From a virus: DNA of 64,000 bases. The position numbers were made by a program, and so were the translations under genes. The notes beneath the pieces were generated by a model. It saw only the letters and a program-made list of their open reading frames with translations, ran no database searches and had not been told where the DNA came from. This document shows, piece by piece, positions 1,934-20,342 of the stretch. The DNA lies in the IMG/VR virus record IMGVR_UViG_3300025674_000015, one strand, 5' to 3'. How positions within the stretch are numbered: position 1 is the first letter of the stretch; every line of letters starts with the position of its first letter.

Positions 1934-2024
1934 AAGATCAAGGGGTTGGAAACCAGAGTGCGTCAACCCTTTGATTTTGTTGAAGATCTTTTTTGTTGAT
2001 CGATCTCACAGGATCGGCTATAAT
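1934..2024 (+). promoter_or_regulatory. Class I early promoter cassette: inverted IHF-like boxes + TTGATC-17-TATAAT
   Basis: AAGATCAAGGGGTTG...CAACCCTTTGATTTT inverted repeat 1934-1978; TTGATC 1996-2001; TATAAT 2019-2024; five GATC in about 80 bp. Confidence 0.8.
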
Positions 2025-2064
2025 GGTCGTCGTTGGTGAGAACACAAACGACAAGGAGAAAAGA

Positions 2065-2733: not shown

Positions 2734-2749
2734 AAAAAGATTCACCAGC

Positions 2750-2840
2750 AAGATCAGGGGGTTGGAAACCAGAATACATCAACCCCTTGATTTTGTTGAA
2801 GATCTTTTTTGTTGATCGATCCTGCCAGATCGGCTATAAT
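2750..2840 (+). promoter_or_regulatory. Class I early promoter cassette
   Basis: Inverted repeat 2750-2794; TTGATC 2812-2817, 17-bp spacer, TATAAT 2835-2840; near-copy of 1915-2030. Confidence 0.8.
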
Positions 2841-2881
2841 GGTCGGCGTAGGTCAGAAACACAAACGACGAGGAGGAAAGA

Positions 2882-3508: not shown

Positions 3509-3541
3509 ACCAAGAGCTTACAAAATAGTCAAAAAAAGTTC

Positions 3542-3571
3542 TTGACTGATCCTTCGAGATCGTGCAATAAT
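3542..3571 (+). promoter_or_regulatory. Class I early promoter
   Basis: TTGACT 3542-3547, GATC at 3548 and 3558, TGc-AATAAT 3566-3571. Confidence 0.75.
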
Positions 3572-3640
3572 GTTTGCACATCGTCGGGAGAGAGATTGTC
3601 TCCTCCCATTTCTTTCAAGCCATACTTTAGGAGATCTATC

Positions 3641-4690: not shown

Positions 4691-4702
4691 TCCTTTTTCC
4701 GC

Positions 4703-4732
4703 TTGACAAACGATCGGGGTTTTTGCTATAAT
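4703..4732 (+). promoter_or_regulatory. sigma70-type promoter TTGACA-18-TATAAT, extended -10
   Basis: Perfect consensus hexamers with TG at -15/-14; GATC in the spacer. Confidence 0.8.
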
Positions 4733-4776
4733 GTGTGGACATTGGCAAAACCCCTTTCGTTTCTTGGAGGATCGCT

Positions 4777-5940: not shown

Positions 5941-5954
5941 GAGGAAAGAAGAGA

Positions 5955-6383
5955 ATGTATCAACCCCACGCCTTCGACGAGAGAGTAGCAGAAGGCTTCG
6001 CAAACTACGAGAAAGAGGAGAGAATGATGACAGGTGTATCCATTTCCAGCGGCGCATTCCGCGCCTATATGGAGCAGAACTACCTCAAAGAGCTAGACAA
6101 GGAGGCTCTTTTGGAGATGCTGGCAGAGGTTCTTCCCCTCGAAGACCTCGTGCTTCTAGCTAGGGAAGTGTGGGATCTTCCCTTCGCGATGGAGTCAGAT
6201 GGCTCCGTTGCCATCGAGGATGTGGAGCAATTGCTAGTCCCAGACTACAACGATCCCCTCGACGACGAGGATTGCGGCTGTGATGAATGGCAAGAGGACG
6301 AGGAATACCTCGAATACACGGGGATGGGAGAAGACCTCGAAACCTCTTACCGCGAGGACTTCGAGAGGCTGGTCGGACAATGA
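5955..6383 (+). CDS. hypothetical acidic protein
   Basis: Start reassigned to ATG 5955 behind GAGG; very acidic C-terminal half. Confidence 0.7.
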   Translation: MYQPHAFDERVAEGFANYEKEERMMTGVSISSGAFRAYMEQNYLKELDKEALLEMLAEVLPLEDLVLLAREVWDLPFAMESDGSVAIEDVEQLLVPDYNDPLDDEDCGCDEWQEDEEYLEYTGMGEDLETSYREDFERLVGQ

Positions 6384-6613
6384 GAGATTTGACACAAGAG
6401 ACATACGAGAAATACCGTGATATTTCGGTGTGTTCCCCCCAAATGTTCGTGACTGCGACATGGACTGACCTTCTCGCTCTTGCCGAGGGCGACAGGCTTG
6501 AAGAGCTTTTGGAGGAAGGGTTGATCCCCAACCTCCCACCAGAGGCTTGGCAGGGGATTGTGGAAGACCTAAAGCCCCACTACGAGCTAGCTTTGTGGAA
6601 GGTATCGCCATGA
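6380..6613 (+). CDS. hypothetical protein
   Basis: ATGA overlap with the previous gene (MRDLTQETYE...). Confidence 0.65.
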   Translation: MRDLTQETYEKYRDISVCSPQMFVTATWTDLLALAEGDRLEELLEEGLIPNLPPEAWQGIVEDLKPHYELALWKVSP

Positions 6614-6705
6614 GAGACAGGGAATGGTGGGGGGATTTCCTTTTATTTATCGGGATGTTGCTGGTCTTTCTCTGGCTCAATTCCCTTTTCTTTTTGTCCA
6701 GATAA
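6610..6705 (+). CDS. small membrane peptide (31 aa)
   Basis: Below the ORF-track cutoff: MRDREWWGDFLLFIGMLLVFLWLNSLFFLSR*; ATGA overlap; one hydrophobic helix. Confidence 0.5.
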   Translation: MRDREWWGDFLLFIGMLLVFLWLNSLFFLSR

Positions 6706-6714
6706 AAAAGTTTC

Positions 6715-6810
6715 TTCAATGAGATCAGGGGTTTAGGTTGTAAAGAAAGCCAAGCCCTTGGTTTCATTGAGGATCTTTTTCTTGATCGATCCTGATCATT
6801 TTGCTATAAT
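6715..6810 (+). promoter_or_regulatory. Class I early promoter cassette
   Basis: Imperfect inverted repeat CTTCAATGAGATCAGGGG...CCCTTGGTTTCATTGAGG; TTGATC 6782-6787, 17 bp, TGcTATAAT 6805-6810. Confidence 0.8.
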
Positions 6811-6850
6811 GGTCGGCGTTGGTGAGGGAACAAACAACAAGGAGGACGAC

Positions 6851-7270
6851 ATGTCCAAGCTAGACAAGAAGATCAGATCGCTTTTGGTTTCCTACGGAGA
6901 GCTTGCCCTCCAGCAGCGACAGGTGCAACAATCACCTACGACCCGCCGATGGGGGCGGGAGGAGAAGAGGGAGGCTGTCCAAGACCTCCATCGGAGAAAG
7001 GAAGACTTGATCGCCCAAGCCGTTGGGATCTTTGGCGATTTAGCCGAAGAAACCGGAAAAACCAAAGAGGCAGCCGCGAGGCTGCTTGGCGACCGCGTTC
7101 GCATCTACGCCGAAGGCGATGAGCGCGGCAAGCTGGGCAGGATCGTCCAGCGAGGGACTGGCCTGTTCTACACGGGTTGCAATTTGGAAAGGTGGGACGC
7201 TGTTGCCGTCCGTATCGACGGCGAGAAGGAGCCTATCTGGATGTCCACCCGCGAGGTGGGCAAGATATAG
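6851..7270 (+). CDS. hypothetical protein
   Basis: Start reassigned to ATG 6851 behind AAGGAGG; C-terminus is SH3-like (GDRVRI...GRIV...AVRIDG). Confidence 0.75.
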   Translation: MSKLDKKIRSLLVSYGELALQQRQVQQSPTTRRWGREEKREAVQDLHRRKEDLIAQAVGIFGDLAEETGKTKEAAARLLGDRVRIYAEGDERGKLGRIVQRGTGLFYTGCNLERWDAVAVRIDGEKEPIWMSTREVGKI

Positions 7271-7287
7271 GAGAACGTTTTTATTTT

Positions 7288-7385
7288 CTTCAATGAGATC
7301 AGGGGGTTGAGAGAGCATCGGCCTCAACTCCTTGGTTTCGTTGAGGATCTTTTTTGTTGATCGATCCTGATCTTTTTGCTATAAT
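7288..7385 (+). promoter_or_regulatory. Class I early promoter cassette
   Basis: Inverted repeat 7288-7346; TTGATC 7357-7362, 17 bp, TGcTATAAT 7380-7385; followed by a GGGCAATGAAGCCC leader hairpin. Confidence 0.8.
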
Positions 7386-7432
7386 AGAGGACACAAGGGC
7401 AATGAAGCCCCCAAGAAGGTGGAGACAACGCC

Positions 7433-8311
7433 ATGTCTAGCAAGATCACAAACATCATCATCGCCGACATCATCGACCTGATCGAAGAAAGCAAGGAGTT
7501 GCCGTGGGAAAAGCCGTGGAATGCGGCAGCATCGTCCCCGCAGAACATGGTATGGCAGAAGCCATACCGTGGGATCAACCGCTTCATGTGTTCGCTCACG
7601 GCGACCGTGAGGGGCTACAACAGCCCCTTCTGGTTGACCTTCGGGCAGGTCAAGAAGGCCGGAGGCAAGATCAAGAAAGGAGAAAAGGCGACAAAGATCG
7701 TCAAATGGGGCTGCATTGAGGTCAAGGACAAGCAAACCGGAGAGGTGAAAGATAAAATCTGGAAGCCTTTCAAGTACTTCAAGATTTTCAACGTCGATCA
7801 GTGCGAGGGGATCGAGGTTCCAGAACAGGAGATCGAAACCCTCGAATGGAAGCCGCTTGAGCGGTGCGACATGATCATCGAAGGATACGCAGACATCCCG
7901 CAGATCGGGGAAGGAGGAGACAGGGCATGTTACATCCCCGCGATGGATGTGATCAAAATGCCCAACAAAACGACCTTCAAGAGCGTGGAGGGGTTCTATG
8001 CGACCCTATTCCACGAGCTTGCACACTCAACTGGTGCGAAGCAAAGGCTCAACAGGGTCGGCGTGACCGATCCGATCCAGTTTGGATCGCACCAATACTC
8101 GAAGGAAGAATTGATCGCGGAGTTTTGCTCCGCCCTGCTCTGCGCTCACGCAGGAATCGAGCGCGAAACCCGAAAGAACTCGGCTGCTTACGTCAAAGGA
8201 TGGTGTAAGTACCTGAGAGAAAAGGGGAAAGAGATCTTCTCTGCTGCTTCACAGGCAGAGAAGGCTTTTGATTACATTGTTTCTCAACAAAAACAGGAGG
8301 TTACAGAATGA
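7433..8311 (+). CDS. ardC: ArdC-family antirestriction / ssDNA-binding protein (DUF1738 + zincin-like domain)
   Basis: PWEKPW, YRGIN, WLTFGQ, KKGEK, FNVDQ, ACYIP..DVIKMP, FYATLFHELAHSTG..RLNR, YSKEELIAE: the full ArdC motif set. Confidence 0.92.
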   Translation: MSSKITNIIIADIIDLIEESKELPWEKPWNAAASSPQNMVWQKPYRGINRFMCSLTATVRGYNSPFWLTFGQVKKAGGKIKKGEKATKIVKWGCIEVKDKQTGEVKDKIWKPFKYFKIFNVDQCEGIEVPEQEIETLEWKPLERCDMIIEGYADIPQIGEGGDRACYIPAMDVIKMPNKTTFKSVEGFYATLFHELAHSTGAKQRLNRVGVTDPIQFGSHQYSKEELIAEFCSALLCAHAGIERETRKNSAAYVKGWCKYLREKGKEIFSAASQAEKAFDYIVSQQKQEVTE

Positions 8312-8493
8312 GAAAAGCAATTTTGATTATGGTGGTCTTCATGACCCTCGTGTCCATCGGATGCAGCACAAACAAAGGAGGCGAAACCGTCGCTGGTGAC
8401 GCAGCCAGCGAAAAGGTGGCGGAGCCACGAGAAGAGAAAAAAGAAGAAAAACAGGAGGTTGACGGAGGTGTAGCAGACCAAGCCAAAGACTGA
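8308..8493 (+). CDS. small lipoprotein
   Basis: MRK + hydrophobic stretch + lipobox-like VSIGC; charged mature part; GGAGG RBS. Confidence 0.7.
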   Translation: MRKAILIMVVFMTLVSIGCSTNKGGETVAGDAASEKVAEPREEKKEEKQEVDGGVADQAKD

Positions 8494-8509
8494 AAGTTTT
8501 TTCCTTAGC

Positions 8510-8599
8510 AAGATCAGGGGGTTGAGTCAACCAAAGGCTCATCCCCTTGATTTTGTTCAGGATCTTTTATTTGATCGATCCTGATCTTTTTGCTATAAT
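8510..8599 (+). promoter_or_regulatory. Class I early promoter cassette
   Basis: AAGATCAGGGGGTTGAG...CTCATCCCCTTGATTTT inverted repeat; TTGATC 8571-8576, 17 bp, TGcTATAAT 8594-8599. Confidence 0.8.
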
Positions 8600-8623
8600 A
8601 GGTGCAGAAAGGAGGGCAGAGCA

Positions 8624-8827
8624 ATGAAAAAGCGACCAAAGGTTGGAGATTGGGTTTATTCTCTTTACCACGAGGCGGAGGGTCTTTTGGTGGGATTCAT
8701 GGATCTCCCAGACGACTGGGGTTGCACCTGTAGGGTGCTTCTCGTGGGGAGAGACACCCCCAGCCCTGCCCACCTGCATTCCCTCCGGATAATCCGGAGG
8801 GCAGAGGATAACAAAAATGAACTTTAA
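8624..8827 (+). CDS. small hypothetical protein (SH3/KOW-like)
   Basis: GGAGG RBS; KVGDWV...GLLVG pattern also present in the next ORF. Confidence 0.65.
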   Translation: MKKRPKVGDWVYSLYHEAEGLLVGFMDLPDDWGCTCRVLLVGRDTPSPAHLHSLRIIRRAEDNKNEL

Positions 8828-9083
8828 CAAAGGAGATTGGGTTGCAACCCACCGGAAGGAGAAAGGGATCGTGGTTGGCTTCCAAACTACATTCTTCTCA
8901 GAGTGTGGAGCCTCAGAGCCTCACAAACTATTGCGACCCCCTCGACCCCCTCGACCCGATCGCAAGCCCACGATCGAATGTGCGTGGGTTCTTTTAATAG
9001 GAGCCCCCAGCCCTTACTTGTTTGATCTTCGCTTTCTCGAAAGAATCGAGGATAACAAAAAAGAAAAATCCATTCACATGTAG
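8817..9083 (+). CDS. small hypothetical protein, paralogue of 8624-8827
   Basis: KGDWV..GIVVG..VLLIG..P; both proteins end near EDNK. Confidence 0.6.
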   Translation: MNFNKGDWVATHRKEKGIVVGFQTTFFSECGASEPHKLLRPPRPPRPDRKPTIECAWVLLIGAPSPYLFDLRFLERIEDNKKEKSIHM

Positions 9084-9453
9084 GTATATGTGGGGGAGGG
9101 GAGATGCCACAGAAAAATCCATTAGAAAAATCCATCCTTGCAGCTTTAAGTTAGTGAAATAGGGCGTAAGGTGGGGGGGTATTTAGCCCAAAAACACAGA
9201 AAAATCAAGAAAAAACGACAAAAATCGTTAAAAAAACAGCTTTTTTTGCAATATATTAGAAAAATCGACATCAGAAAAACCCATAAAAATCCATAAGATA
9301 GGAGAAAAATCCATTTGTGTGACCCCCGTGCGCCCCCGTGTGGGGCTCAGAAAAATCCATTTGCGCCTATCCCCGTGTACAAGGGGCTCAGAAAAATCCA
9401 TTTGCGTTGACACATGTGGGCGCGTGTAGGAGGTTGGCAGAAAAATCCATTTG
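9062..9453. repeat. array of AGAAAAATCCAT(TTG) direct repeats with phased A-tracts
   Basis: Copies at 9062, 9111, 9124, 9303, 9349, 9390, 9439 and degenerate copies at 9258, 9273, 9285; A-tracts start at 9190, 9200, 9210, 9220, 9230. Confidence 0.9.
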
Positions 9454-9491
9454 CAAACAGGCACATGCAGGCGATCAGGCGAAGATCGGCC

Positions 9492-9802
9492 TTTCCCCAA
9501 ACACCGAGAAATAGGGGGTTTGATTTAACCCCCCCCTAAAGGAGACTCGAAAAATGTCCAAAGAAATCAAAGACCTGCAAGCCAAGATCGGAGGCACACA
9601 CCAGCCCACATGTGAGCGTGATCGCCCGCAACCCCCGCCCCTGTGGGCGGCAGCGATTGTCCTGCACCCGCAGCGCAGACAAACCGCGCTCGATTTCACA
9701 CGGGTCATGGCGCACCCACGAGGGAACACGCCAGATCCCCAATTTCCGCAAACCCCGAGAAACACGGGGGTTTGATTTACCCCCCTCCTAAAGGGCACTC
9801 GA
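9492..9802. repeat. ~60-bp imperfect direct repeat (9492-9550 and 9743-9802) with internal GGGGGTTTGATTTA(A)CCCCC hairpin
   Basis: TTTCC(C/G)CAAAC(A/C)CCGAGAAA..GGGGGTTTGATTTA.CCCCC.CCTAAAGG..ACTCGA present twice. Confidence 0.85.
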
Positions 9803-9854
9803 TTTCTTTTTGAGATCAAGGGGTTGGAGATCCCTGGAATCCTTTTCAGAACCG

Positions 9855-9888
9855 TGTGACACGATCTGACACAGGTCGATCGTATAAT
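9855..9888 (+). promoter_or_regulatory. Class II promoter (TGTGACACGATCTGACAC box + GATCG-TATAAT, no canonical -35)
   Basis: Box starts exactly 28 bp before TATAAT here and at 10892, 11478 and 12003. Confidence 0.75.
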
Positions 9889-9943
9889 GTAGCACGAGGG
9901 CAAGAAAGCCCACCAACCACAAACCGATCAAAGGAGATCGCTC

Positions 9944-10216
9944 ATGAAAGTCTTCACCGTCTGGTTCGCTCAGTCCCCCGATCGCACCTTCCGCCTCTTC
10001 GATCGCTCCCCCGAAGGTGCGCCTCTCTGGTTCGTCACTCGCTCCCATGCCGTCGAATGGTGCAGGGACGAGATCTTCGGGGATCTCGATCGTCTTCCTG
10101 TCCCCTATTCCATCGAGATCAGAGAGATCCACGTCGACGATCTGCCCCCTGAATCCCCGATCACCTACGATATTGAGGCAGCATGCGAAGGTTGGCAGGA
10201 ATCCAGTTGGGTCTGA
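9944..10216 (+). CDS. hypothetical protein
   Basis: AAGGAG RBS within the conserved leader. Confidence 0.75.
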   Translation: MKVFTVWFAQSPDRTFRLFDRSPEGAPLWFVTRSHAVEWCRDEIFGDLDRLPVPYSIEIREIHVDDLPPESPITYDIEAACEGWQESSWV

Positions 10217-10227
10217 TTCCCCTTCAA

Positions 10228-10289
10228 AATCAACGATTTATAAAATAGTTGAAAAAAATTGTCAGAAAGAATCACCCCGATCGTATAAT
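10228..10289 (+). promoter_or_regulatory. hybrid promoter with exact IHF consensus upstream
   Basis: AATCAACGATTTA 10228-10240 (WATCAANNNNTTR), TTGTCA 10259-10264 (19-bp spacer), GATCG-TATAAT 10284-10289, followed by the class II leader hairpin. Confidence 0.65.
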
Positions 10290-10334
10290 AGAGGACACAG
10301 GGCAACAACGCCCCACCAATTCAGGAGAGATCAC

Positions 10335-10625
10335 ATGCGAAAGATCACGCAAGAAGCCTTCACCGCTTGGAAGTCCGGGAAATCATTCAAGAAATCCAAC
10401 ACCCGCGTCGACGCTGACGGATCGGTCTTCCTCCACGGGAACCAGATCGTGCGCGTCACCCCTGACGCTGTCCTCGTCTCTGACGGGGGTTTTGGCTGGT
10501 CAATGACCACCCGCGAGCGTTTGAGCCCGTGGGTCACGTTCTCCCAGAAAAACTGGGAGCCTCTGATGGATGGTTCCCCTTACAAATCAGGCACTTGGGT
10601 GGCTCTCACCCGCAAGACTTGGTAG
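10335..10625 (+). CDS. hypothetical phage protein
   Basis: Start reassigned to ATG 10335 behind AGGAG (MRKITQEA...SNTRV...VFLHGNQI...TTRERL). Confidence 0.75.
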   Translation: MRKITQEAFTAWKSGKSFKKSNTRVDADGSVFLHGNQIVRVTPDAVLVSDGGFGWSMTTRERLSPWVTFSQKNWEPLMDGSPYKSGTWVALTRKTW

Positions 10626-10680
10626 CCCCAACCCCTAACCCCTTGATTTCCTTTCACTTTTTCCTTCAGGAGAAAAACCT

Positions 10681-10884
10681 ATGCATTTTCAATACTTTGT
10701 CGCCGCTGTCTGTCAGACCCTCGAAAGCATGGATCACCCGATCGAGAATCTTCTTTCCCGCAGGGAGGCAGAAATGCTCCTCTGCGATTGCTTCGAAGCT
10801 GGCTGGACACCAGACCAAACGATCGACAAGGTTCTCTCTGATGCCCGTGGGGACTGGCTTTTCAACGATTTCTGGAGGGATTGA
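10681..10884 (+). CDS. hypothetical protein
   Basis: AGGAG RBS after a pyrimidine tract. Confidence 0.65.
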   Translation: MHFQYFVAAVCQTLESMDHPIENLLSRREAEMLLCDCFEAGWTPDQTIDKVLSDARGDWLFNDFWRD

Positions 10885-10888
10885 TCCA

Positions 10889-10925
10889 ACCTGTGTCACG
10901 ATCTGACACAGGTCTGACGTATAAT
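10889..10925 (+). promoter_or_regulatory. Class II promoter; box forms a perfect palindrome ACCTGTGTCA-cgatc-TGACACAGGT
   Basis: 10-bp inverted repeat 10889-10913; TATAAT 10920-10925. Confidence 0.75.
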
Positions 10926-10974
10926 AGGGGACACAGGGCAACACCGCCCCAAAAACCGATCCAAGGAGATCACT

Positions 10975-11298
10975 ATGCAATACCGCGAATGGCGAAAAAA
11001 CAAAGCAAAATCAGACACTTCCTTCGTTTCGGCGTGGAGAGATTCCAGGGGTCTCCCGAAGCTCTCTGATGCCGAGAACAGCGAGCGTTTCGACTCCTAC
11101 CTCTGGTTGATGCGCGAGCTAGACAAGATCGTGCTTCGCAAGATGCGCGCCGAAGAGCGCGAGGAGCGCGGCCTTTCCGGCTCCCTCTCCTTTGAGGCCG
11201 AGCGTCACGGGGAAAGCGTCGATTTCGACGACCTGAGTCTCGACTATGCCGAAGAGGTCGACGTTGACGGCCTCACAGACGAAGACGTTGCTTTCTGA
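10975..11298 (+). CDS. hypothetical protein with acidic tail
   Basis: AAGGAG RBS in the conserved leader. Confidence 0.75.
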   Translation: MQYREWRKNKAKSDTSFVSAWRDSRGLPKLSDAENSERFDSYLWLMRELDKIVLRKMRAEEREERGLSGSLSFEAERHGESVDFDDLSLDYAEEVDVDGLTDEDVAF

Positions 11299-11306
11299 CC
11301 CTCACC

Positions 11307-11330
11307 ACCGCCCTTTTGGGCGGTTCCCTT
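11307..11330 (+). terminator. GC hairpin, possible terminator or processing stem
   Basis: ACCGCCC-TTTT-GGGCGGT right after a stop codon; weak U-tract. Confidence 0.45.
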
Positions 11331-11376
11331 CCCAACCCTTTGATTTTCTTCCTTTTTTCCTCTGGAGAGGTGCTAA

Positions 11377-11475
11377 ATGTCTGAAACAATTAAGCTTTTC
11401 GCCGGTGTCCTGATTGCTTCCCTGTTCTACTTCGCTCCCGCCCTGATTTTCTTTTTTCTCCAGCTTCCCTCGTAA
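11377..11475 (+). CDS. small membrane peptide (32 aa)
   Basis: Below the ORF-track cutoff: MSETIKLFAGVLIASLFYFAPALIFFFLQLPS*; GGAGAGG RBS. Confidence 0.55.
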   Translation: MSETIKLFAGVLIASLFYFAPALIFFFLQLPS

Positions 11476-11477
11476 CG

Positions 11478-11511
11478 TGTGACACGATCTGACGCAATTG
11501 GATCGTATAAT
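11478..11511 (+). promoter_or_regulatory. Class II promoter
   Basis: TGTGACACGATCTGACGC-aattg-GATCG-TATAAT. Confidence 0.75.
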
Positions 11512-11562
11512 AGAGGGCAAGGGGGCAAGGAAGCCCCAAACAACGATCGAAGGAGATCAAAC

Positions 11563-11994
11563 ATGCGAATCGAAACCTACGGCCAGAAAAACCTTTTCCT
11601 CTTTGAAATCGCAGACATGGAGCGCAAGATCGACGCACACGTCGCAATGCGCGACCACGTCGAGGCTTCCGGCAAGCTGTCCCCCGAAATGGACGCTCTC
11701 TTCGCCTCCATCCTCACGCCCCTCACAGACGCGGTTGCAGCCCGCAAGGCTACTCTGGACGCGCTCACAACGGCGGATCACCTCCGCCTAGCGGAGCAGG
11801 AAGAGGCGCGCATGCGCTTCGCGGAGACCTCCACAGAGGAGGAGGAGGCGATCAAGGCGGAGGTTTCTTTCTTCCGCTGCAAGCTCCGCCGGGAAGGGGG
11901 TTTCCGCATCCCTCTGGCCTCCAGCCCCGAGGCTGCGGGGGCTATGATGGAGCGCATGGGCGAGGCGTATGACCTGCGCCGTCTGCGCAATTAA
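11563..11994 (+). CDS. hypothetical helical protein
   Basis: Start reassigned to ATG 11563 behind AAGGAG. Confidence 0.75.
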   Translation: MRIETYGQKNLFLFEIADMERKIDAHVAMRDHVEASGKLSPEMDALFASILTPLTDAVAARKATLDALTTADHLRLAEQEEARMRFAETSTEEEEAIKAEVSFFRCKLRREGGFRIPLASSPEAAGAMMERMGEAYDLRRLRN

Positions 11995-12002
11995 TGCGGA
12001 CA

Positions 12003-12036
12003 TGTGACGCGATCTGACACTGTTGGATCGTATAAT
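12003..12036 (+). promoter_or_regulatory. Class II promoter
   Basis: TGTGACGCGATCTGACAC-tgttg-GATCG-TATAAT. Confidence 0.75.
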
Positions 12037-12085
12037 AGGGGAGAAGGGGCAAGGAAGCCCTCAACAACGATCGAAGGAGATCAAA

Positions 12086-12496
12086 ATGGCAAACGCTAAC
12101 TACCTGAAATATACCGTGATTCCCGCTCTCGCTGAATCCCTGCGCGAAGCAGACGAGCTTCAAGGTATCCTCCGCACCTTCCCCGACCTCAGCCCCCTCA
12201 ACAAGGGGCTGATCGAGGGTCGTTTGATCACCGTCAACGAGGCGGTGGAAGACTACTCTGCCGAAATGCGCGCTGAATACGAGGTTTCGGAGCAGTTGAA
12301 CGCTGTGCGCGAATACCGCGCCGGCTTCGGGTCTTACGTCCACCCCACGATCGAAAGGTTCGTGGATCAGGAGATTGCAGCCCTCGAAGCTGCTCTTGCC
12401 CTCGAAGAAGCCCGTGGTGACGGGGAACGCCTCACCTTCGCTAGCTTCGAGGATTTCGAGGCTTTCGTGCGGTCTACCTTCAACGTGGTTGAATGA
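12086..12496 (+). CDS. hypothetical acidic protein
   Basis: Start reassigned to ATG 12086 behind AAGGAG. Confidence 0.75.
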   Translation: MANANYLKYTVIPALAESLREADELQGILRTFPDLSPLNKGLIEGRLITVNEAVEDYSAEMRAEYEVSEQLNAVREYRAGFGSYVHPTIERFVDQEIAALEAALALEEARGDGERLTFASFEDFEAFVRSTFNVVE

Positions 12497-12511
12497 CCGC
12501 AAACCCCGGAG

Positions 12512-12536
12512 CAGCCGCCCTTCGGGGCGGTTGTTT
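12512..12536 (+). terminator. hairpin with TTCG loop, likely terminator
   Basis: CAGCCGCCC-TTCG-GGGCGGTTG-TTT just after a stop codon. Confidence 0.55.
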
Positions 12537-12580
12537 CCCCAACCCCTTCTTTTTATTCCCTTTTTTCAGGAGCAACAATC

Positions 12581-12826
12581 ATGGCTATCTCCCTGTCTTC
12601 ATTGGCAAATCTCTTCTTCTTCGTTTCCCTCGCTGCCGTGGGTTTCTACGGCGTGATCATGTTCGTTCTGTGCGATCAGTATATCCGAGCGATCATGGGC
12701 TCCCCAGAGGTCGACGGCTGGGCGGTGATCGAAGCCACCCCTTCGATCCTCCTCTTGTTCTCGGTGTCTCTGACCGGTTCGATCGTTTGGTTCGCTGTCG
12801 GCGGGTTTTGCCAGACCTTCGCTTGA
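12581..12826 (+). CDS. small membrane protein (two hydrophobic helices)
   Basis: AGGAG RBS; two long hydrophobic segments. Confidence 0.65.
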   Translation: MAISLSSLANLFFFVSLAAVGFYGVIMFVLCDQYIRAIMGSPEVDGWAVIEATPSILLLFSVSLTGSIVWFAVGGFCQTFA

Positions 12827-12878
12827 CCGTCAACCCTAACCCTTTGTTTTCTTTCACTTTTTTTTCAGGAGTTTCAAA

Positions 12879-13226
12879 ATGAAAAAGGCTTTCACTGTAA
12901 CTATCGAGAATGGTTCAAGAATTGGCAAGGCTGTCTTCGAGGCTGCGAGCTTCGCGGAGGTTCGCCGTCAGTTCGCCCTGATGCAGCGTAACGACTTGAA
13001 CTTGAAAGGGTTTTGCATCGTCAAGATTCAGGAGAACGAAAAACCCCAGCGGGTCGGGCGTTTCAAACGTCCCGTTCTCCAGAGCGCGATGGGCAGGGCG
13101 TTGGACGCTGCCGGCAACTCTAAGTCCTTGGGAAGAAAGCGGAATCCGTTCCGCGATCCCAAACAAGCCGCGAAGATTCGCCGCGAGCAAAATGCGATCT
13201 TGAAAAAGGAGAACGAAAACAAATAG
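12879..13226 (+). CDS. hypothetical basic protein
   Basis: AGGAG RBS; K/R-rich C-terminus; last gene of the GC-rich zone. Confidence 0.7.
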   Translation: MKKAFTVTIENGSRIGKAVFEAASFAEVRRQFALMQRNDLNLKGFCIVKIQENEKPQRVGRFKRPVLQSAMGRALDAAGNSKSLGRKRNPFRDPKQAAKIRREQNAILKKENENK

Positions 13227-13233
13227 TTGCATG

Positions 13234-13441
13234 AGGGGGGTCTCCCCCCCCCTCCCCCTCGGCCTCTCCGGAAAGTAAAACCCTAGTAAGATCAGGGGGT
13301 TACGCCGGGCGGCCTAGCCCACACACAAATCGCCGCCAATTTTCCAAAATTCCAATCCTTTCCAATGACTTTCCAAAAAATCCAAAACTTTCCAAAAGAG
13401 GGCCAATCAAAAAAAATCCCCAAAAAAAAATTCCAAAATTG
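13234..13441. repeat. boundary island: C-tract, IHF-like box, ~10-bp periodic TCCAA repeats
   Basis: C-rich run 13243-13260; GATCAGGGGGTTA 13290-13302; TCCAA at 13343, 13351, 13361, 13372, 13381, 13391, 13432. Confidence 0.8.
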
Positions 13442-13464
13442 AAAAAAATGTCCGATCCTTTGAC

Positions 13465-13472
13465 CTATTTAT
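13465..13472 (+). promoter_or_regulatory. putative late promoter CTATTTAT
   Basis: The same octamer precedes AT-rich operons at 18079, 20903 and 50666; -10-only architecture by analogy with T4 gp55 promoters. Confidence 0.6.
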
Positions 13473-13494
13473 AGTAAACAAAAAGGAACCCCCA

Positions 13495-14250
13495 ATGAGA
13501 ATCACCAAATCAATCTTAAAAAAGATCATCAAAGAAGAGATCCTTCGAGAAAGTAGCTACATGGGATTCGAAGAAAAACCACCCCCTCTAGAAAGAGGCT
13601 TCCGCAACGTTGGGATTGATGATGATCGTTTGGCTCAAATTAGAAAAGTTATTTCAGAGCCTCTTAAGAAAATACCTTATCCTCCGAACGTTATAGATGC
13701 TGAAGGGCACGGGGGTAGGATTTATAAACATATTCTAACTCCAACAGAGCAAGTCATAACACGAATGGAGCTTGACTATATTATAAGCAATGATGCTCTA
13801 GAAAAGTTCAACCTCAATGATGTAAACTTTTCCGGGATCGACCTCTCTGGTTTAGATTTTAGCAAGGCTTATATGGATGGGAGCAACTTCTCTGGAGCAA
13901 GCTTGATCGGGACAACAATGAAACAAACTCAATTAGGGGACAGCAATTTTTCCAAGGCAGATTTATCCAAGGCAAATCTAGCTGGTGCATGGCTCGCAGA
14001 TGCAAAACTAGTTGGTGCGCTTCTCGCAGATGTAAATTTGAGAAATGCAGACGGGATGAGGGCAGATCTATCCAATGCAAATCTAACTGGCGCAGACTTG
14101 AAATATGCAAATTTGACAGGTGCAAACTTGACCGGCGCAGACCTGACCGGTGCAAACTTGAAATATGCAAACTTGCGCAATGTTGAGTATAATAGTGAAA
14201 CAATCTTCCCTGAAGGATTCGATCGTTCAGCCTTGGAAGGTTTTGAATAA
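13495..14250 (+). CDS. pentapeptide-repeat protein with conserved N-terminal leader
   Basis: MRITKSILKKIIKEEILRE leader; A(D/N)LxG/A repeats in the C-terminal half. Confidence 0.9.
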   Translation: MRITKSILKKIIKEEILRESSYMGFEEKPPPLERGFRNVGIDDDRLAQIRKVISEPLKKIPYPPNVIDAEGHGGRIYKHILTPTEQVITRMELDYIISNDALEKFNLNDVNFSGIDLSGLDFSKAYMDGSNFSGASLIGTTMKQTQLGDSNFSKADLSKANLAGAWLADAKLVGALLADVNLRNADGMRADLSNANLTGADLKYANLTGANLTGADLTGANLKYANLRNVEYNSETIFPEGFDRSALEGFE

Positions 14251-14264
14251 TAAAAGGAAAAAAA

Positions 14265-15248
14265 ATGAGAATCACCAAATCAATCTTAACCAAAATCATT
14301 AGGGAAGAAATCCTTCGAGAAGCATATGGTCGCGAAGAGTTTACTGAAATCAGACGGCTAGCCATCCCTCCGGGAAATAAAAGCCTACCTAACATTAAAA
14401 AAGCTTACTCGATAGTGAAAAAAATAAAAGACCCTCTCTTGAAAGAGGGGGCAATTGAATATATTAAAGAACACTTTGGAGTGGTGGCGCATAAGATTTT
14501 AAATTATTCTACTACGCGCTTCAGCAAAAATCTAGAATTAAACCTTGATTTAAGCGGGGAAAACCTAAGAGGATATGATATAAGCTCCATGGATTTTCGG
14601 TCTGCGCGGGGGCTAGCCAGACAGAGGTACAAACCAAAAGTAAAGACAGTTAATTTTAGCGAAGCAGACCTGACTGGTGGCAAATCTGATCGTAACTATT
14701 TCTATTTTGGAAATTTTAATAAAGCTATTATGAATGACTTTACTTTCATGCAGACAGCGTTCATCCTTTCCGATCTACAATCCGTTAAACTTAACAATGC
14801 AAAAATAGAATTGACATCCTTTCGGAGTACAAACCTTTCTGGTGTTAAACTAAAAAATGCATATTTACGAGCGGTGGGCTTTGGAAGCGAGGGGGGGAAT
14901 ACTAGTGACAATATCACGAGCCTGCGTGGTGCAGATTTGTCCGGGGCGGAGTTCAGCTTCGTGGATTTTGAAAACTGCGATGCGTCAGGTGCAAACTTTG
15001 CCGGTGCAAATTTTGATCACCACTGCAAGTTTGAGAATGCAGATTTTTCTGGTTGCAACTTTTCTGGTGCATATGCTAAAGGGTGCACATTTAAAAATTC
15101 AAACCTTTCGAATGCGGACTTTTCCAACGCAGACCTCCGTGGGGTTGACTTTAGAGGCTCGAACGTTCAAGGAGCTAATTTCACCGGAGCAATAGGGAGA
15201 CACGTACGTCGTCTCGCCCAATCAAGCTTGGAAGCCCCAGAGCAATAA
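14265..15248 (+). CDS. pentapeptide-repeat protein with conserved N-terminal leader
   Basis: MRITKSILTKIIREEILRE; ADLSG/ANFAG/ADFSN repeats. Confidence 0.9.
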   Translation: MRITKSILTKIIREEILREAYGREEFTEIRRLAIPPGNKSLPNIKKAYSIVKKIKDPLLKEGAIEYIKEHFGVVAHKILNYSTTRFSKNLELNLDLSGENLRGYDISSMDFRSARGLARQRYKPKVKTVNFSEADLTGGKSDRNYFYFGNFNKAIMNDFTFMQTAFILSDLQSVKLNNAKIELTSFRSTNLSGVKLKNAYLRAVGFGSEGGNTSDNITSLRGADLSGAEFSFVDFENCDASGANFAGANFDHHCKFENADFSGCNFSGAYAKGCTFKNSNLSNADFSNADLRGVDFRGSNVQGANFTGAIGRHVRRLAQSSLEAPEQ

Positions 15249-15259
15249 AAGGAAAAAAA

Positions 15260-16048
15260 ATGAAGATCACTAAATCAATTTTAAAAAGAATCATCAAGGA
15301 AGAGATCTTAAAAGAAATGATGGGTGGCAAGGAGCTTGCTCAAATCAGGCACTTAGCTAACCCTCCGGGAAATAAAAGCCTACTTAACATTTTGAAAGCC
15401 TATTATGCATTAGCCTCAATAGAAGATGCTAAAATGAGAAGTATGGCATATGATTATTTCATGAAACACTTTGGAAAGAGCGCTTTTGAAATAGCAAGGC
15501 AATATGATAATTATGGAAGAAGTGATAAGCCAAAACAAGACTTTACCGGTCTTGATCTTTCTGGCTTTGATCTTTCTGGTGGTATTTTTGGTTACGCTAA
15601 TTTCTCTGGTGCTAATCTGGAAGGTGCTAGCTTGAGAGGTGCATACTTGCACCTTGCAGATTTGACCGGTGCAAACTTGAAAGACGCAGACTTGACCGGC
15701 GCTGATCTTAATCGCACTGTTTTGTTTAAAACTGATTTCACCGGCGCTGACTTGACAAATTCATTCATGGTGAATCCTAAATTAAATGAAACCAATTTTA
15801 CAAATGCAAATCTAGCAAATGTTAATTTGCATCCAGCCGTCCAAGAAGGAGGGGTGCTCAAAGGAAGTATTTTTAAAGGTGTTAAATGGAATTCTGCAAC
15901 CTTGATTAACTCTCTTTGGTTCAGCAGCACTGGACCCATGAACCCAAGCGCTGAACGATTCTTGCAAGCCAACGAATTAGTTCAAACGGACGAAGTTGAG
16001 CAGGCTCTCTATCCCGTTCTTACTTTAGGAAAAGCGCTTTCAAATTAA
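15260..16048 (+). CDS. pentapeptide-repeat protein with conserved N-terminal leader
   Basis: MKITKSILKRIIKEEILKE; ANFSG/ANLEG/ADLTG repeats. Confidence 0.9.
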   Translation: MKITKSILKRIIKEEILKEMMGGKELAQIRHLANPPGNKSLLNILKAYYALASIEDAKMRSMAYDYFMKHFGKSAFEIARQYDNYGRSDKPKQDFTGLDLSGFDLSGGIFGYANFSGANLEGASLRGAYLHLADLTGANLKDADLTGADLNRTVLFKTDFTGADLTNSFMVNPKLNETNFTNANLANVNLHPAVQEGGVLKGSIFKGVKWNSATLINSLWFSSTGPMNPSAERFLQANELVQTDEVEQALYPVLTLGKALSN

Positions 16049-16058
16049 AGGAAAAAAA

Positions 16059-17117
16059 ATGAAGATTACTAAATCAATCTTGAAAAAGATCATCAAAGAA
16101 GAAATTCTTCGAGAATCTCTTGCTGTCAACGAAGCTATTCAAAAACTCAGACAACTTGCCCTAAATCCTAAAAAGTTGACTAACATTAAAAAAGCTTATT
16201 CGATAGTAAAAAAAATAAAGAAACAAGAACCCGAAAAGGGAAGTGTAGCGTACGACTACTTTATATCAAAGTTTGGAGAGGTTGGTCTTAAAATTGCCGA
16301 GCATCTTGCTGCTCGATGGAGTAAAAATAAACAAGCAATACTTGATTTAAGTGGAGAAGATTTAAGAGGGTACGACTTTGAAAACCTCCATAATAATAGA
16401 ACAATATTGATCTTCAAAGCTAGTGAGCCGCCGCGAGAAAGCGTAGGGAATGTGCCTCCCGAGCAAAGAAGGATATGGCCCGGGCGGACGTACGCCGCTG
16501 GTTATCCTGTGATAAACCATCCCTCGGCGAAGCTCGCAAAGTTGGTTAATTTTTCCAATGCCAACATGCAAGGCGCTGTCCTTGATAGAGCCTATCTGCA
16601 ATATGGAAGTCTTGAAGGGGCCAACTTGAATAATGCTTCTATGCTTAATGCTCAATTTAACTATTTAAATTTAAAAGGGGCAAAGCTTAACAACGCAAAA
16701 GCGAGCGTTATATATTGCACGGAAACGGATTTTTCTAATGCAGTTTTGAAAGGTGCCGAGCTCAACTCGGCATTGCTCTACCGCTCAAGCTTGAATAAAG
16801 CAGACTTATCTGGAGCAAATCTTGAACTAGCGAGCATGGAAAACATAAATGCTATAGGTGCAAATTTTTCTGGTGTATATGCTAAAGGATGCAAGTTTGA
16901 GGATTCAAACCTTTCTAATGCGGACTTTTCCAACGCAGACCTTACTGTAACTAACTTTGTACGTTCGAATATTGAAGGAGTTAATTTCACCGGAGCAAAA
17001 GGAATTCCGGTCGAAGTCAGCACTTTCAGACGTAGATTTGAGGGCGCGACATGGAACGATCAAACAATCTTCCCTGAAGATTTCGATCGATCAATCTTGG
17101 AAGTCCCAGAACAATAA
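16059..17117 (+). CDS. pentapeptide-repeat protein with conserved N-terminal leader
   Basis: MKITKSILKKIIKEEILRE; long pentapeptide tract; paralogue of 14265. Confidence 0.9.
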   Translation: MKITKSILKKIIKEEILRESLAVNEAIQKLRQLALNPKKLTNIKKAYSIVKKIKKQEPEKGSVAYDYFISKFGEVGLKIAEHLAARWSKNKQAILDLSGEDLRGYDFENLHNNRTILIFKASEPPRESVGNVPPEQRRIWPGRTYAAGYPVINHPSAKLAKLVNFSNANMQGAVLDRAYLQYGSLEGANLNNASMLNAQFNYLNLKGAKLNNAKASVIYCTETDFSNAVLKGAELNSALLYRSSLNKADLSGANLELASMENINAIGANFSGVYAKGCKFEDSNLSNADFSNADLTVTNFVRSNIEGVNFTGAKGIPVEVSTFRRRFEGATWNDQTIFPEDFDRSILEVPEQ

Positions 17118-17128
17118 AAGGAAAAAAA

Positions 17129-17839
17129 ATGAAAATCACCAAATCAATTTTCAAAAAGATCATTAGGGAAGAGATCCTCAAAGAGATGATGGGCGGCGAG
17201 AAATTTGCTCAAATCAGAGAACTATTTAGTTCTTCGGAGTATAAAAAGCTAGATAACATTTTGAAAGCCTATGAGATAGTAAACTCAATAGAAGATCCTA
17301 ATGAAAAAAGCCTAGCAAGTGACTATTTTATACAATATCTTGGAAAGGGCGCTTTTGAATTAGCAAATCGATATAGTAATCATGACCCCAAAAGTGGGGA
17401 AAAACTTGACTTATCCGGGTTGGACCTTTCTGGATTGGATTTCTCAGGTGCATACCTGAGAGGTGCAAACTTGAACGGTGCAAAATTGAGAAATGCTAAC
17501 CTTACCGGTGCAGACCTTATTAACTGTTTTTTGTTTGAAGCTGACCTCACCGGTGCTGACTTGACAAACTCATTCATGACAAATGTTAGATTAGATAAGA
17601 CTAATTTTACAAATGCAAATCTAGCAAATGTTCGCTTGCTCCCATTCCTCGGTCTCGAAGGAAGCATTTTTAAAGGAGCTAAATGGAATTCTAAAACCAT
17701 GATTAACAATTTTTGGTTCGGCAGCACTTATGTCAGACCACAGGCTGCACGATTCAGGGACGAAAACGAGTTGGTTCGAACGGACGAAGTAGGACCAATG
17801 GGTGCTCCTGACGATGCGGTTCTTTTGAGTGATCTTTAA
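17129..17839 (+). CDS. pentapeptide-repeat protein with conserved N-terminal leader
   Basis: MKITKSIFKKIIREEILKE; paralogue of 15260. Confidence 0.9.
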   Translation: MKITKSIFKKIIREEILKEMMGGEKFAQIRELFSSSEYKKLDNILKAYEIVNSIEDPNEKSLASDYFIQYLGKGAFELANRYSNHDPKSGEKLDLSGLDLSGLDFSGAYLRGANLNGAKLRNANLTGADLINCFLFEADLTGADLTNSFMTNVRLDKTNFTNANLANVRLLPFLGLEGSIFKGAKWNSKTMINNFWFGSTYVRPQAARFRDENELVRTDEVGPMGAPDDAVLLSDL

Positions 17840-17859
17840 AATAAAAGGAGAATATATAA

Positions 17860-18066
17860 ATGAAAATCACTAAAAAACTATTGAAAAAACTGATTCTAGA
17901 AGAACTTCAAAAAGAAGCGGTAGAAATGCCCCCTCCTTATTTGAAAGGAGAAAAGGTTAAAGATCCAGTGCCGCAGGAAGCATCCTTAGAAGAGAAGCTA
18001 GCCAAACTAACTTCCGAAGATCAAAATCTTGTCATGAAAATCCTCGATAGATTAAGCGCAAATTGA
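17860..18066 (+). CDS. small protein with conserved N-terminal leader
   Basis: MKITKKLLKKLILEELQKE; AAGGAG RBS. Confidence 0.8.
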   Translation: MKITKKLLKKLILEELQKEAVEMPPPYLKGEKVKDPVPQEASLEEKLAKLTSEDQNLVMKILDRLSAN

Positions 18067-18078
18067 AATTGTTTTGAC

Positions 18079-18086
18079 CTATTTAT
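18079..18086 (+). promoter_or_regulatory. putative late promoter CTATTTAT
   Basis: Context TTTGACCTATTTATAnTAAACAAAAA duplicated from 13459-13484. Confidence 0.6.
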
Positions 18087-18109
18087 AATAAACAAAAAAG
18101 GCGCTCCCA

Positions 18110-18712
18110 ATGAAAATTAGAAAATCAACTTTAAAAAAAATCATCAAAGAAGAGATCCTTCGAGAAAGTGAATACATGGATTACAAAGAAAGAGATCCTG
18201 CCAACCCACGAGGCTTCTACAACGTTATGATTGATGATGATCGGCTTCAAAAACTTCGCCTCTTTTTTTCTGGTGGGGATATAAAAACACTTGTAAACTT
18301 GACAGACATAGAGAAGAATTACATTATGCATATGCAAGGAGAGACTCCGGAAGTCAGAAAATACTTCAGTTCCACCTATCCGTTTCTTGAATTTCCTTTT
18401 GACGCAGTTTGGACAATACGTCTGGCTTGGAATGACTTTGTCGAAGAAGAGAAACTAAGAGAAATTCCTGATTTGAAAGAAAAAATTGAGAATCATGGCC
18501 TAGAGAGGGGTTCTCAAAACAGGTTGCGCATTGGAACAATGGGGTCTATCTATACCGGTAAAGGGGGCGACTACCTTTACGACTATATCAGAAGAAATAA
18601 ACTTTTGCCTAAATTGAAAGCAAAAATGTTCGACTATCTTAAAAGGTATACCAACCCATCAGAAATACCAAAAACAAAAAGATTAACACTAAGAAGAGGA
18701 ATCGATAGGTAA
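18110..18712 (+). CDS. leader-bearing protein; N-terminal ~50 aa paralogous to 13495, unrelated C-terminus
   Basis: MKIRKSTLKKIIKEEILRESEYM...RGFYNVMIDDDRL. Confidence 0.85.
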   Translation: MKIRKSTLKKIIKEEILRESEYMDYKERDPANPRGFYNVMIDDDRLQKLRLFFSGGDIKTLVNLTDIEKNYIMHMQGETPEVRKYFSSTYPFLEFPFDAVWTIRLAWNDFVEEEKLREIPDLKEKIENHGLERGSQNRLRIGTMGSIYTGKGGDYLYDYIRRNKLLPKLKAKMFDYLKRYTNPSEIPKTKRLTLRRGIDR

Positions 18713-19533
18713 TGAAAATCACTAAATCAAAACTAATCAAAATCATCAAAGAAGAGATTCTCAAAGAGATGACACAATCTTCACATATGAGCCCGGGCTC
18801 CCGGCTAGCCCTAGATATGACAGATCGAGAGCGCATAGCTCACATCAGACAAGCTTTAGCTGACAACAAGCCAATTCCTTATATGCTTAAACCACTTAAA
18901 CCTATAGAGTTGGCTCTTGTTAAAGCAAATTTAGAAAAAGATATACCAAATGATCGATTGGAACAAATTCAAAAATATTTTGAAGATGGTGATGTTTTCG
19001 TTCCGGAGACACCATTCACAGAAGTGGAAGAAAAATATATTAATATACTTGACAAAGAGCCAAAGTACAAAAACCTTAAGGCAAAAGGGGTAACAGGAGA
19101 ATGGGCTCAAGGTTTGTCTAGAGGTCGATACCTTCTTGGGGTAGATAAAAATAAAGAATCATTTCTTTATCAGATTCACAATACTGATGCGTACGAAGGG
19201 GTGCCTCCAAATTTTCGAGGGCTGCAACCGCCAATTTCAAAAAGAGAAAACAAGACAAAATACATTGATGCAATTGTTTGGGAATTTTTGCAAAGCTTTA
19301 AACACTATGGCCGTTTTTACCCATGGATGTTTGATGAAAGAGATAACTTTCTAAAAGCAGTGGAGCCTGCCGCTTCTGAAATGTCTTCGAAAGAAAAAGT
19401 GAAAGCTTTTGAACGATATATTAGAGATTATTATTACAGACAAAGCCGTCGTCAAAGAGCGCCTCATATTCAAGGAAAAGATGGAGAAGAAGAAGAGCTA
19501 ATTCAGGCTATTCGAAGATCTTCCCCTAATTGA
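18712..19533 (+). CDS. leader-bearing hypothetical protein
   Basis: MKITKSKLIKIIKEEILKE; two copies of a (D/E)R(L/I)xxI module. Confidence 0.85.
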   Translation: MKITKSKLIKIIKEEILKEMTQSSHMSPGSRLALDMTDRERIAHIRQALADNKPIPYMLKPLKPIELALVKANLEKDIPNDRLEQIQKYFEDGDVFVPETPFTEVEEKYINILDKEPKYKNLKAKGVTGEWAQGLSRGRYLLGVDKNKESFLYQIHNTDAYEGVPPNFRGLQPPISKRENKTKYIDAIVWEFLQSFKHYGRFYPWMFDERDNFLKAVEPAASEMSSKEKVKAFERYIRDYYYRQSRRQRAPHIQGKDGEEEELIQAIRRSSPN

Positions 19534-19549: not shown

Positions 19550-20320
19550 CTAAGGACACCATTGCGAGCCCTTAAAAGGGCATTTAAGGCACGATGTCTT
19601 CTTTTTTGGATAGAACCCCTTCTCAATAAAGTGAACGGCCTTATTGAGCCCTTCTAGGGCGTTCTTCATCTTCCTATCACCAGTTGTTATTCTTACAAAC
19701 TCTACTTGGTCTTTCTTTGCAGTTCTTTTTAAGAGCGCAAAGAAGCATTCAATCATTTTTGGATCAATTTGAAGCTTTTCAGCAATGAACTTTTTGTAAA
19801 AAACCAACTGATATCCTGTAATCTTGTCTGATTTTCTTCTTGCATCCCATCCCCAAGAACATGTTTTCCAATCAATGATGTAATACTTACCAGTTTTTGG
19901 ATTTTTTAAGATCAGATCCACAAATCCTTTGAATTTTAAGTTAGTTCCTTCAATGTTTTCATAAAGATCCATCTCTGTTTGAACAACTTCGCAACCTTCA
20001 AAGACTTTTTTAAGCTCTGGAATGCAAATTGGAGCTAATTTTTTGCCTTGTTCCATGAAAACATCCAAATCTTTTTCAACTTTTAGGTCTTCATCAAGAC
20101 CTTCCCACTCTTTTTGGAAGGATTGTGAGAAATTTTGAGCTTCTTCGCCGGTTTTCCACTCATTTAGAAGCGTTTTTTCACAAACTTCGTGGATTGCTGT
20201 TCCAAAAGCAGTGAAAATATTGCCCGTGAAGCCTTTTTGACCGTCAATGTATTCGATCTTGAAGCGATGAGGGCACTCATCCCAAATTTTGAACCCTGAA
20301 AATGAAATATGCTGAACCAT
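19550..20320 (-). CDS. PD-(D/E)XK nuclease, Cas4/RecB(AddB)-like with putative Fe-S cysteines
   Basis: HISFS..ECP, FGTAIHE, GFVDL..IIDWKT, YQLVFY, C-terminal CLKCPF....WC; start reassigned to 20320 (GGAG RBS). Confidence 0.88.
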   Translation of the reverse strand: MVQHISFSGFKIWDECPHRFKIEYIDGQKGFTGNIFTAFGTAIHEVCEKTLLNEWKTGEEAQNFSQSFQKEWEGLDEDLKVEKDLDVFMEQGKKLAPICIPELKKVFEGCEVVQTEMDLYENIEGTNLKFKGFVDLILKNPKTGKYYIIDWKTCSWGWDARRKSDKITGYQLVFYKKFIAEKLQIDPKMIECFFALLKRTAKKDQVEFVRITTGDRKMKNALEGLNKAVHFIEKGFYPKKKTSCLKCPFKGSQWCP

Positions 20321-20342
20321 TTTGGTCTCCTTTGTGTTTGTT

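Follow-up and report, generated by a model that had tools for sequence, protein, structure and literature searches.

A 64-kb stretch of viral DNA from IMG/VR record IMGVR_UViG_3300025674_000015 (64,000 nucleotides, referred to below as the window) was found to carry eight consecutive plus-strand open reading frames (ORFs), g1 to g8, at positions 13495-19533, all of which start with one common N-terminal leader of 16-19 residues. From comparison with the genomes of related phages, the array is best explained as a late-expressed, fast-turning-over set of head-internal proteins in a Far-T4-type myophage. On balance, we favour the view that the leader would be a cleaved head-loading tag and that its cargo would be delivered with the DNA, as in the internal proteins of phage T4. 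These T4 proteins are the model for phage proteins that are injected with the DNA to disarm host defences, and to our knowledge such injected proteins have so far been recognisable only in close relatives of T4, by means of the T4 tag. The T4 proteins Ip1-3 each block a different GmrSD enzyme (PMC12373910), and a constant capsid tag on polymorphic injected proteins within a hyperplastic locus is established in T-even phages (PMC9026906, PMC3012670, PMC12373910). A first-pass annotation of the window had proposed an injected, tagged effector array of this kind, an interpretation that is partly supported, by comparison, in the analysis presented here.

A common leader in front of unrelated bodies

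The eight ORFs lie exactly at the coordinates assigned to them by the first-pass annotation and each of them fits the leader pattern, no further copy of which was found within the 64-kb window in a six-frame regular-expression scan. A leader profile returned g1-g8 at E 3e-11 to 2e-8 and the next frame at E above 1; only this gap is informative, as the profile was built with these eight sequences included. The conserved core reads M-K-I-T-K..L-K-K-I-I-K-E-E, followed by one hydrophobic residue, and forms a basic (+4) amphipathic helix. An I-x-E motif occupies residues 12-14 in all eight leaders and L-R/K-E occupies residues 17-19 in seven, so that the leader ending L-R/K-E described by the annotation stands for all of the genes except g6.

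Within IMG/VR, 105 stretches match the degenerate DNA pattern of the leader core, where far fewer than one match would be expected by chance according to our estimate from residue frequencies; the exact DNA of the g4 leader gave no match in the IMG/VR search. The loci concerned contain 263 leader ORFs (226 distinct; median length 109 aa), arranged in arrays of up to 10 genes that always lie on one strand. The 212 complete distinct cargos among them fell into 167 blastp groups, 138 of which were singletons, and the proposed organisation of a constant tag with variable cargo is thus borne out by 167 mutually unrelated cargo groups behind one leader. A wide search with a hidden Markov model of the leader, which the annotation had suggested as a check, was likewise productive: out of 1.84 billion proteins, the 30-column profile retrieved 12,755 representatives at E<=1e-3. 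In the literature that was searched, the leader (including its first five residues in this sense) was found in no paper, and the paper describing the Far-T4 phages makes no mention of a leader, a promoter or internal proteins.

In the IMG/VR set, leader positions 1-5, 8 and 10-15 are nearly invariant, position 16 is hydrophobic and the information content is at background from position 17. This conservation is partly dictated by the search pattern, but it also holds for additional copies that a looser pattern recovered from those loci. The conserved positions use all synonymous codons, with six Leu codons at position 8, for example. Since synonymous codons vary freely at positions where the amino acid is held, the data indicate that selection acts on the leader peptide and not on the DNA.

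Some database ORFs consist of 2-4 in-frame leader-plus-cargo units (P0006, P0007, P0008, P0017 and P0034; L043 10332-11540 on the minus strand, L111 2021-3019 and L061 6836-7357). Some of these have no internal Met, and the recurring junction between units resembles a read-through ribosome-binding site; three cases stand under code 11 in the IMG/VR loci. They could be polyproteins or artefacts of gene calling. If real, they would fit a polyprotein cut at each unit, and would just as well show that the motif can occur away from the N-terminus.

Cargo bodies of the array

As claimed in the first-pass annotation, five of the proteins carry pentapeptide repeats: g1-g5 match the Pfam family Pentapeptide (PF00805) at E 2e-32 to 5e-19, with scores of 68-111 bits that are far above the cut-off of 20.2. 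The product of g1 (13495-14250, 251 aa) consists of the leader, a region of about 55 aa that is common to g7, and a pentapeptide-repeat domain. In g2 (14265-15248, 327 aa) the leader is followed by a basic helical N-domain and pentapeptide repeats, an arrangement with a helical N-domain that recurs in g3 (15260-16048, 262 aa), g4 (16059-17117, 352 aa) and g5 (17129-17839, 236 aa), the last of which ends in a pentapeptide beta-helix and is 69-76% identical to gene 47290 of the nearest relative of the window, the IMG/VR contig G001 (156,945 bp). The short g6 (17860-18066, 68 aa) bears a leader variant on a small acidic body and is 62% identical to G001 gene 49275. A leader helix, a disordered linker and a compact domain at residues 41-200, for which no structural match was found, make up g7 (18110-18712, 200 aa), and g8 (18712-19533, 273 aa) carries the leader on a body that matches no known family. 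The mature proteins would measure 49-338 aa. The leader is shared by all eight genes as had been stated, and similarity extends beyond it within two subgroups, through the helical N-domain of about 100 aa in g2-g5 and over the 55 aa of g1 and g7.

No Pfam family was detected in g6-g8, and no PHROG beyond a marginal match of g7 (E 0.006); g8 had no match in cultured phages by tblastn, and neither g7 nor g8 gave a usable lead in the ESM Atlas. The model of g5 (mean pLDDT 78) comprises a low-confidence leader helix at residues 5-20 (pLDDT 56-60), then a confident helical domain and a pentapeptide beta-helix of the right-handed quadrilateral type. That of g7 (mean pLDDT 82) comprises the leader helix, a disordered linker of some 20 residues that ends near residue 40, and a compact domain modelled with confidence, for which Foldseek searches of the PDB and BFVD and wide VIA-align searches returned nothing above Z 2.8. 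Both models would be more in keeping with a tag that can be detached than with an integral domain.

The family resemblance of g1-g5 (by PF00805) and of the modelled g5 beta-helix is to pentapeptide-repeat proteins at large, such as the cyanobacterial Rfr proteins, the beta-helix domain of NleL/SopA, Qnr, MfpA and AlbG. The annotation had gone further and read these proteins as DNA mimics directed against topoisomerases or DNA sensors, proposing structure prediction and surface charge as a check. A beta-helix was indeed modelled for g5; its best PDB matches in Foldseek are generic, namely Rfr proteins and the NleL beta-helix, with Qnr, MfpA and AlbG lower at TM 0.13-0.31. The net charge of the repeat domains of g1-g5 ranges from -6 to +1, no features specific to Qnr or MfpA were found in them, and in contrast to the pentapeptide-repeat proteins named above they add a leader and a helical N-domain. 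We therefore regard the identification of the pentapeptide proteins as DNA mimics aimed at topoisomerases or DNA sensors as doubtful.

When the 90 longest leader proteins of IMG/VR and G001 were compared with Pfam, pentapeptide repeats were found in four and a weak 5'-nucleotidase match in one, and nothing else. In G001, the terminase gene is closely preceded by three further leader-type genes (121344-123608), one with a HAD-like DxDxT and one with an HExxH metalloprotease motif; these two would be enzymatic cargo types.

A candidate late promoter

The annotation had also stated that the array genes follow CTATTTAT motifs, which proved to be correct for only two of the eight. One copy (13465..13472, plus strand) lies 22 nt upstream of the g1 start and is the candidate late promoter of a g1-g6 unit; the second (18079..18086, plus strand) lies 23 nt upstream of g7, and among the array genes only g1 and g7 have the upstream TTTGAC-CTATTTAT-A element. 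The genes g2-g6 each start 10-20 nt behind the preceding gene, with a Shine-Dalgarno site, and the start of g8 overlaps the stop of g7 by 1 nt. Because the motif stands only before g1 and g7 and the other genes are closely spaced or overlapping, the array looks like two transcription units.

Throughout the window the motif occurs seven times on the plus strand and never on the minus strand, with intergenic copies before g1, g7, ORF 20938 (site 20903) and the baseplate wedge gene 50693 (site 50666). G001 has 18 copies on the plus strand and none on the minus strand, among them copies 20-60 nt upstream of the genes for the scaffold-like protein, the head-tail adaptor and the tail sheath and of five leader genes. 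Among 216 upstream regions of IMG/VR leader genes, CTATTTAT was present in 22 and the 7-mer CTATTTA, the most enriched word, in 27, for the most part some 30-40 nt ahead of the start, whereas no T4 late consensus was present. No sigma-70-like site was seen directly upstream of g1 or g7. Because of its association with structural genes, CTATTTAT is a candidate for the late promoter of this clade, which would differ from the T4 late sequence TATAAATA. The possibility that TATTTATA represents a T4 late promoter read on the opposite strand was ruled out, since the motif occurs on the plus strand only, upstream of plus-strand genes.

Links to the head module and a putative cleavage site

A gp6-type baseplate wedge protein is encoded in the window, with counterparts at about 30% identity in Flavobacterium phage immuto, Microcystis phage Mel-JY01 and an uncultured 484-kb phage. 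G001 encodes a large terminase (TerL), a portal, a Peptidase_S77 prohead protease of the T4 gp21 type (129834-130433), an acidic scaffold-like protein and a gp23-type capsid protein; among cultured phages, the closest capsid proteins belong to immuto, Mel-JY01 and Rhodothermus phage RM378. From these similarities we infer that the clade belongs to the 'Far-T4' myophages (PMC4360716). No tRNA genes were found in the window.

In four of eight genomes examined, the head module contains leader genes immediately upstream of the protease gene. A conserved protein of about 130-145 aa is encoded immediately after the S77 protease (G001 130435-130830; L136 7815-8201; L138 6526-6954; L139 11314-11706; L140 6491-6904; L143 7092-7523), and its N-terminus can be aligned to the leader profile (columns 1-20 against 2-21; hhalign probability 91.7%, E 8e-7). 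This protein had no Pfam match, and its G001 copy, the one compared with PHROGs, had no match there either. We regard it as a candidate prohead core protein, which the leader may imitate. A similar relation exists in T4, where the tag pattern occurs twice in the genome record and the N-terminus of the scaffold protein gp22 resembles the tag. Complex prediction between the post-protease core protein (A6) and residues 1-45 of the G001 homologue of g7 gave a score of 0.01, which speaks neither for nor against binding.

The protease gp21 of T4 cleaves after L/I-x-E, and the targeting propeptides of T4 measure 10-19 residues (PMC9026906). At the level of the motif, a propeptide ending in L/I-x-E is present in the leaders of the window. 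The capsid proteins of the clade align with the T4 gp23 propeptide and have, at the T4 cut position, L-L-(K/R)-E followed by A, T or S; this predicted maturation site closely resembles the end of the window leader. The leader would offer two candidate cut positions, I-x-E and I-L-R/K-E; only the I-K-E|E site is conserved in the wider family, outside the subclade of the window.

The same helix could also be a permanent functional part of these proteins, acting in coiled-coil formation or oligomerisation, in DNA or membrane binding, or in docking to tail or baseplate, rather than a tag that is cleaved. Its basic (+4), amphipathic character, its internal position in some ORFs and its resemblance to the N-terminus of a conserved structural-module protein would all agree with such a function, and late expression would suit any virion or assembly role. 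Nevertheless, in the structure models the leader stands separate from the folded body, with a disordered linker between them in g7, and its conservation ends abruptly at residue 16 whatever the cargo, the cargos being unrelated, while the Glu-ending motifs and the leader genes adjoining the protease gene point to processing. We thus consider a permanent helix unlikely.

Turnover of the locus

The array forms a polymorphic locus between flanks that are nearly identical to those of G001. On the left, window 164-13545 corresponds to G001 31571-45344 at 91-95% nucleotide identity by blastn, the last segment being 10278-13545 against G001 42089-45344. The left conserved flank proper (164..13494, plus strand) is a GC-rich island with short gaps, for example at 6811-7281 and 8683-9491. 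The final stretch of the identical block is the g1 leader itself (13495..13545, plus strand, the first 17 codons), directly behind which similarity stops. On the right, the conserved flank (19552..20342, minus strand) is a PD-(D/E)XK nuclease gene that is 93% identical to G001 in nucleotides and 94% in amino acids. The array of about 6 kb between these flanks is 0-79% identical to G001, and the structural genes elsewhere are 30-57% identical in protein. The corresponding array of G001 has seven leader genes with partly different bodies, one of which (617 aa) combines a domain matching no known family with pentapeptide repeats. Relatives of g7 show indels, including insertions, and a g8-like segment swapped in, all of them exactly behind the leader. 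Since the identity block ends behind the leader and the swaps among g7 relatives start there, the promoter-plus-leader segment behaves as the constant end of an exchangeable cassette.

These comparisons also bear on the idea that the leader is simply the slowest-evolving remnant of one tandemly duplicated family, the array being an ordinary cluster of paralogues in which it has no addressing role. True paralogues are certainly present, as similarity continues for about 100 aa past the leader in g2-g5 and extends over about 55 aa in g1 and g7, and the pentapeptide domain recurs in five of the eight genes. However, the same 16 residues head 167 groups of IMG/VR cargos without detectable mutual similarity, conservation falls to background straight behind residue 16, and the chimeras exchange bodies behind an unchanged leader, which together make this explanation quite improbable. 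Very improbable indeed is a role of the conserved 5' segment as nucleic acid, either in translation initiation or as a recombination cassette, with an incidental peptide: mobile promoter cassettes that shuffle genes are reportedly known in T4-type phages and the block of high identity with G001 ends exactly behind the leader codons, which would fit recombination there, but the amino acids are held under freely varying synonymous codons, and copies of the leader that lack a start codon are retained within ORFs.

Comparison with known systems and proposed mechanism

A head-loading tag cleaved from its cargo would bring the array close to the internal proteins of T4. Both have a short N-terminal propeptide, with the L/I-x-E of a gp21-type protease, that is common to otherwise unrelated small proteins; in both, non-core genes are clustered in a hypervariable locus; the phage of the window, judging by its relatives, would share the T4-type head module; and the tag length of 14-19 residues in the window falls within the 10-19 of T4. 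All of the observations are as the T4 internal-protein model predicts, and none was found that contradicts it.

The array would nonetheless differ from T4 in several ways. Its tag is another one, longer and strongly basic, and is conserved across a far wider set of phages, being spread over an uncultured Far-T4 clade, outside the Tevenvirinae, on what would be thousands of cargo families. The cargo includes pentapeptide-repeat proteins of up to 352 aa, CTATTTAT would take the place of the T4 late promoter, and packaging and cleavage are proposed here from sequence comparison.

Several points weigh against a T4-like head-loading tag. The leader is not homologous to the T4 tag, the two having in common, by eye, only the initial M-K and a hydrophobic-I-x-E element. 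The internal proteins of T4 are small and basic, in contrast to the window, where g1, g3, g5 and g6, half of the bodies, are acidic, and to IMG/VR, where 83% of the cargos have a pI below 6. The L/I-x-E motif is short and occurs frequently in helical sequence rich in Lys and Glu. Since the window does not extend to the head module, the evidence for an S77 protease comes from relatives; this protease was detected in 11 of the 18 large contigs that bear leaders, among them every one of the five with a completeness of at least 90%, a count that stands without a base rate for large phage contigs. No clear leader was found in cultured phages, with weak matches in Immuto and Mel-JY01 and none in S-WAM1; a tblastn query with 25 aa of the leader was likewise negative, which is probably due to low-complexity filtering. 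The 2-4 internal copies in some database ORFs would mean that the motif is not strictly N-terminal.

The giant phages phiKZ and SPN3US offer a second parallel, having many head-internal proteins, including paralogue families, that a gp21-related protease cleaves after Glu and that are ejected together with the DNA (PMC5694885; PMC9026906). They differ, according to these reviews, in that their propeptides lack one portable conserved leader, and further in cleavage motif and lineage (PMC5694885; PMC9026906). The array is also like polymorphic toxin and effector systems in its constant address, swappable cargo and recombination at the junction. In contrast to those systems, the address would target the phage prohead and not a secretion system, and there is no immunity gene.

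In the mechanism that we propose, the basic amphipathic leader helix would dock each protein onto the prohead core during shell assembly, like the capsid targeting sequence of T4. The gp21-type (S77) prohead protease would remove the leader after Glu, at I-x-E (residues 12-14), at I-L-R/K-E (residues 16-19) or at both. The freed bodies, five pentapeptide beta-helix proteins and three without a known fold, would be retained within the head and pass into the host together with the DNA, where they may have an anti-defence role. Recombination at the promoter-plus-leader segment would install new cargo, giving rise to a hypervariable locus.

Neighbouring genes

The 13-kb island to the left of the array has a GC content of about 50-55% in a phage of about 37% GC, and its proteins are 92-98% identical between the window and G001; it looks like a recently exchanged module. 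The jump in GC at about 13.3 kb might have been due to a chimeric assembly, which was ruled out, as G001 has the same arrangement of island and array. Island genes encode a MoxR-type AAA_5 ATPase with a DUF2201 VWA/metallopeptidase partner (3542-5940), an ArdC-like protein with ArdcN and zincin domains (7433-8311) and a Kyano_Gp96 domain protein (10017-10625). The spacer between the last ORF of the island and g1 (13230-13450) begins with long runs of G and C, behind which come a series of TTCCAA(A)-like words and runs of A.

Directly behind the array, the opposite strand (19550-20876, minus) encodes the PD-(D/E)XK nuclease and a matrixin-like metallopeptidase. A block with a trypsin-like peptidase and a PhoH-PIN gene (28502-30669) is 87% identical in nucleotides to G001 63793-61626 and is inverted relative to its neighbours. 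Four glycosyltransferase-like genes form a cluster with an epimerase gene at 33955-41232, and the baseplate wedge genes are flanked by two very large ORFs, at 45492-50249 (1585 aa) and 54045-63302 (3085 aa).

Implications for Far-T4 phages

In its widest form, the proposal would make the leader the universal head-loading address of the uncultured Far-T4 clade; the window array would then bring pentapeptide beta-helix proteins into the host, to act on its DNA enzymes or DNA-sensing defences just as the phage DNA enters. We put this forward as a tentative possibility. What has been found is a second tag, unrelated in sequence to that of T4, on thousands of unrelated small proteins in abundant aquatic Far-T4 phages, and the window is a clear example of turnover in such a repertoire, with cassette exchange right behind the leader and between near-identical flanks. 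If the proposal is true, sequence would directly reveal which proteins are packaged and injected by thousands of uncultured phages (over 12,000 protein clusters). If the leader has the same role as the T4 tag, this would provide a catalogue, from sequence only, of candidate injected counter-defence proteins, together with a portable tag with which foreign proteins may be loaded into such phages.

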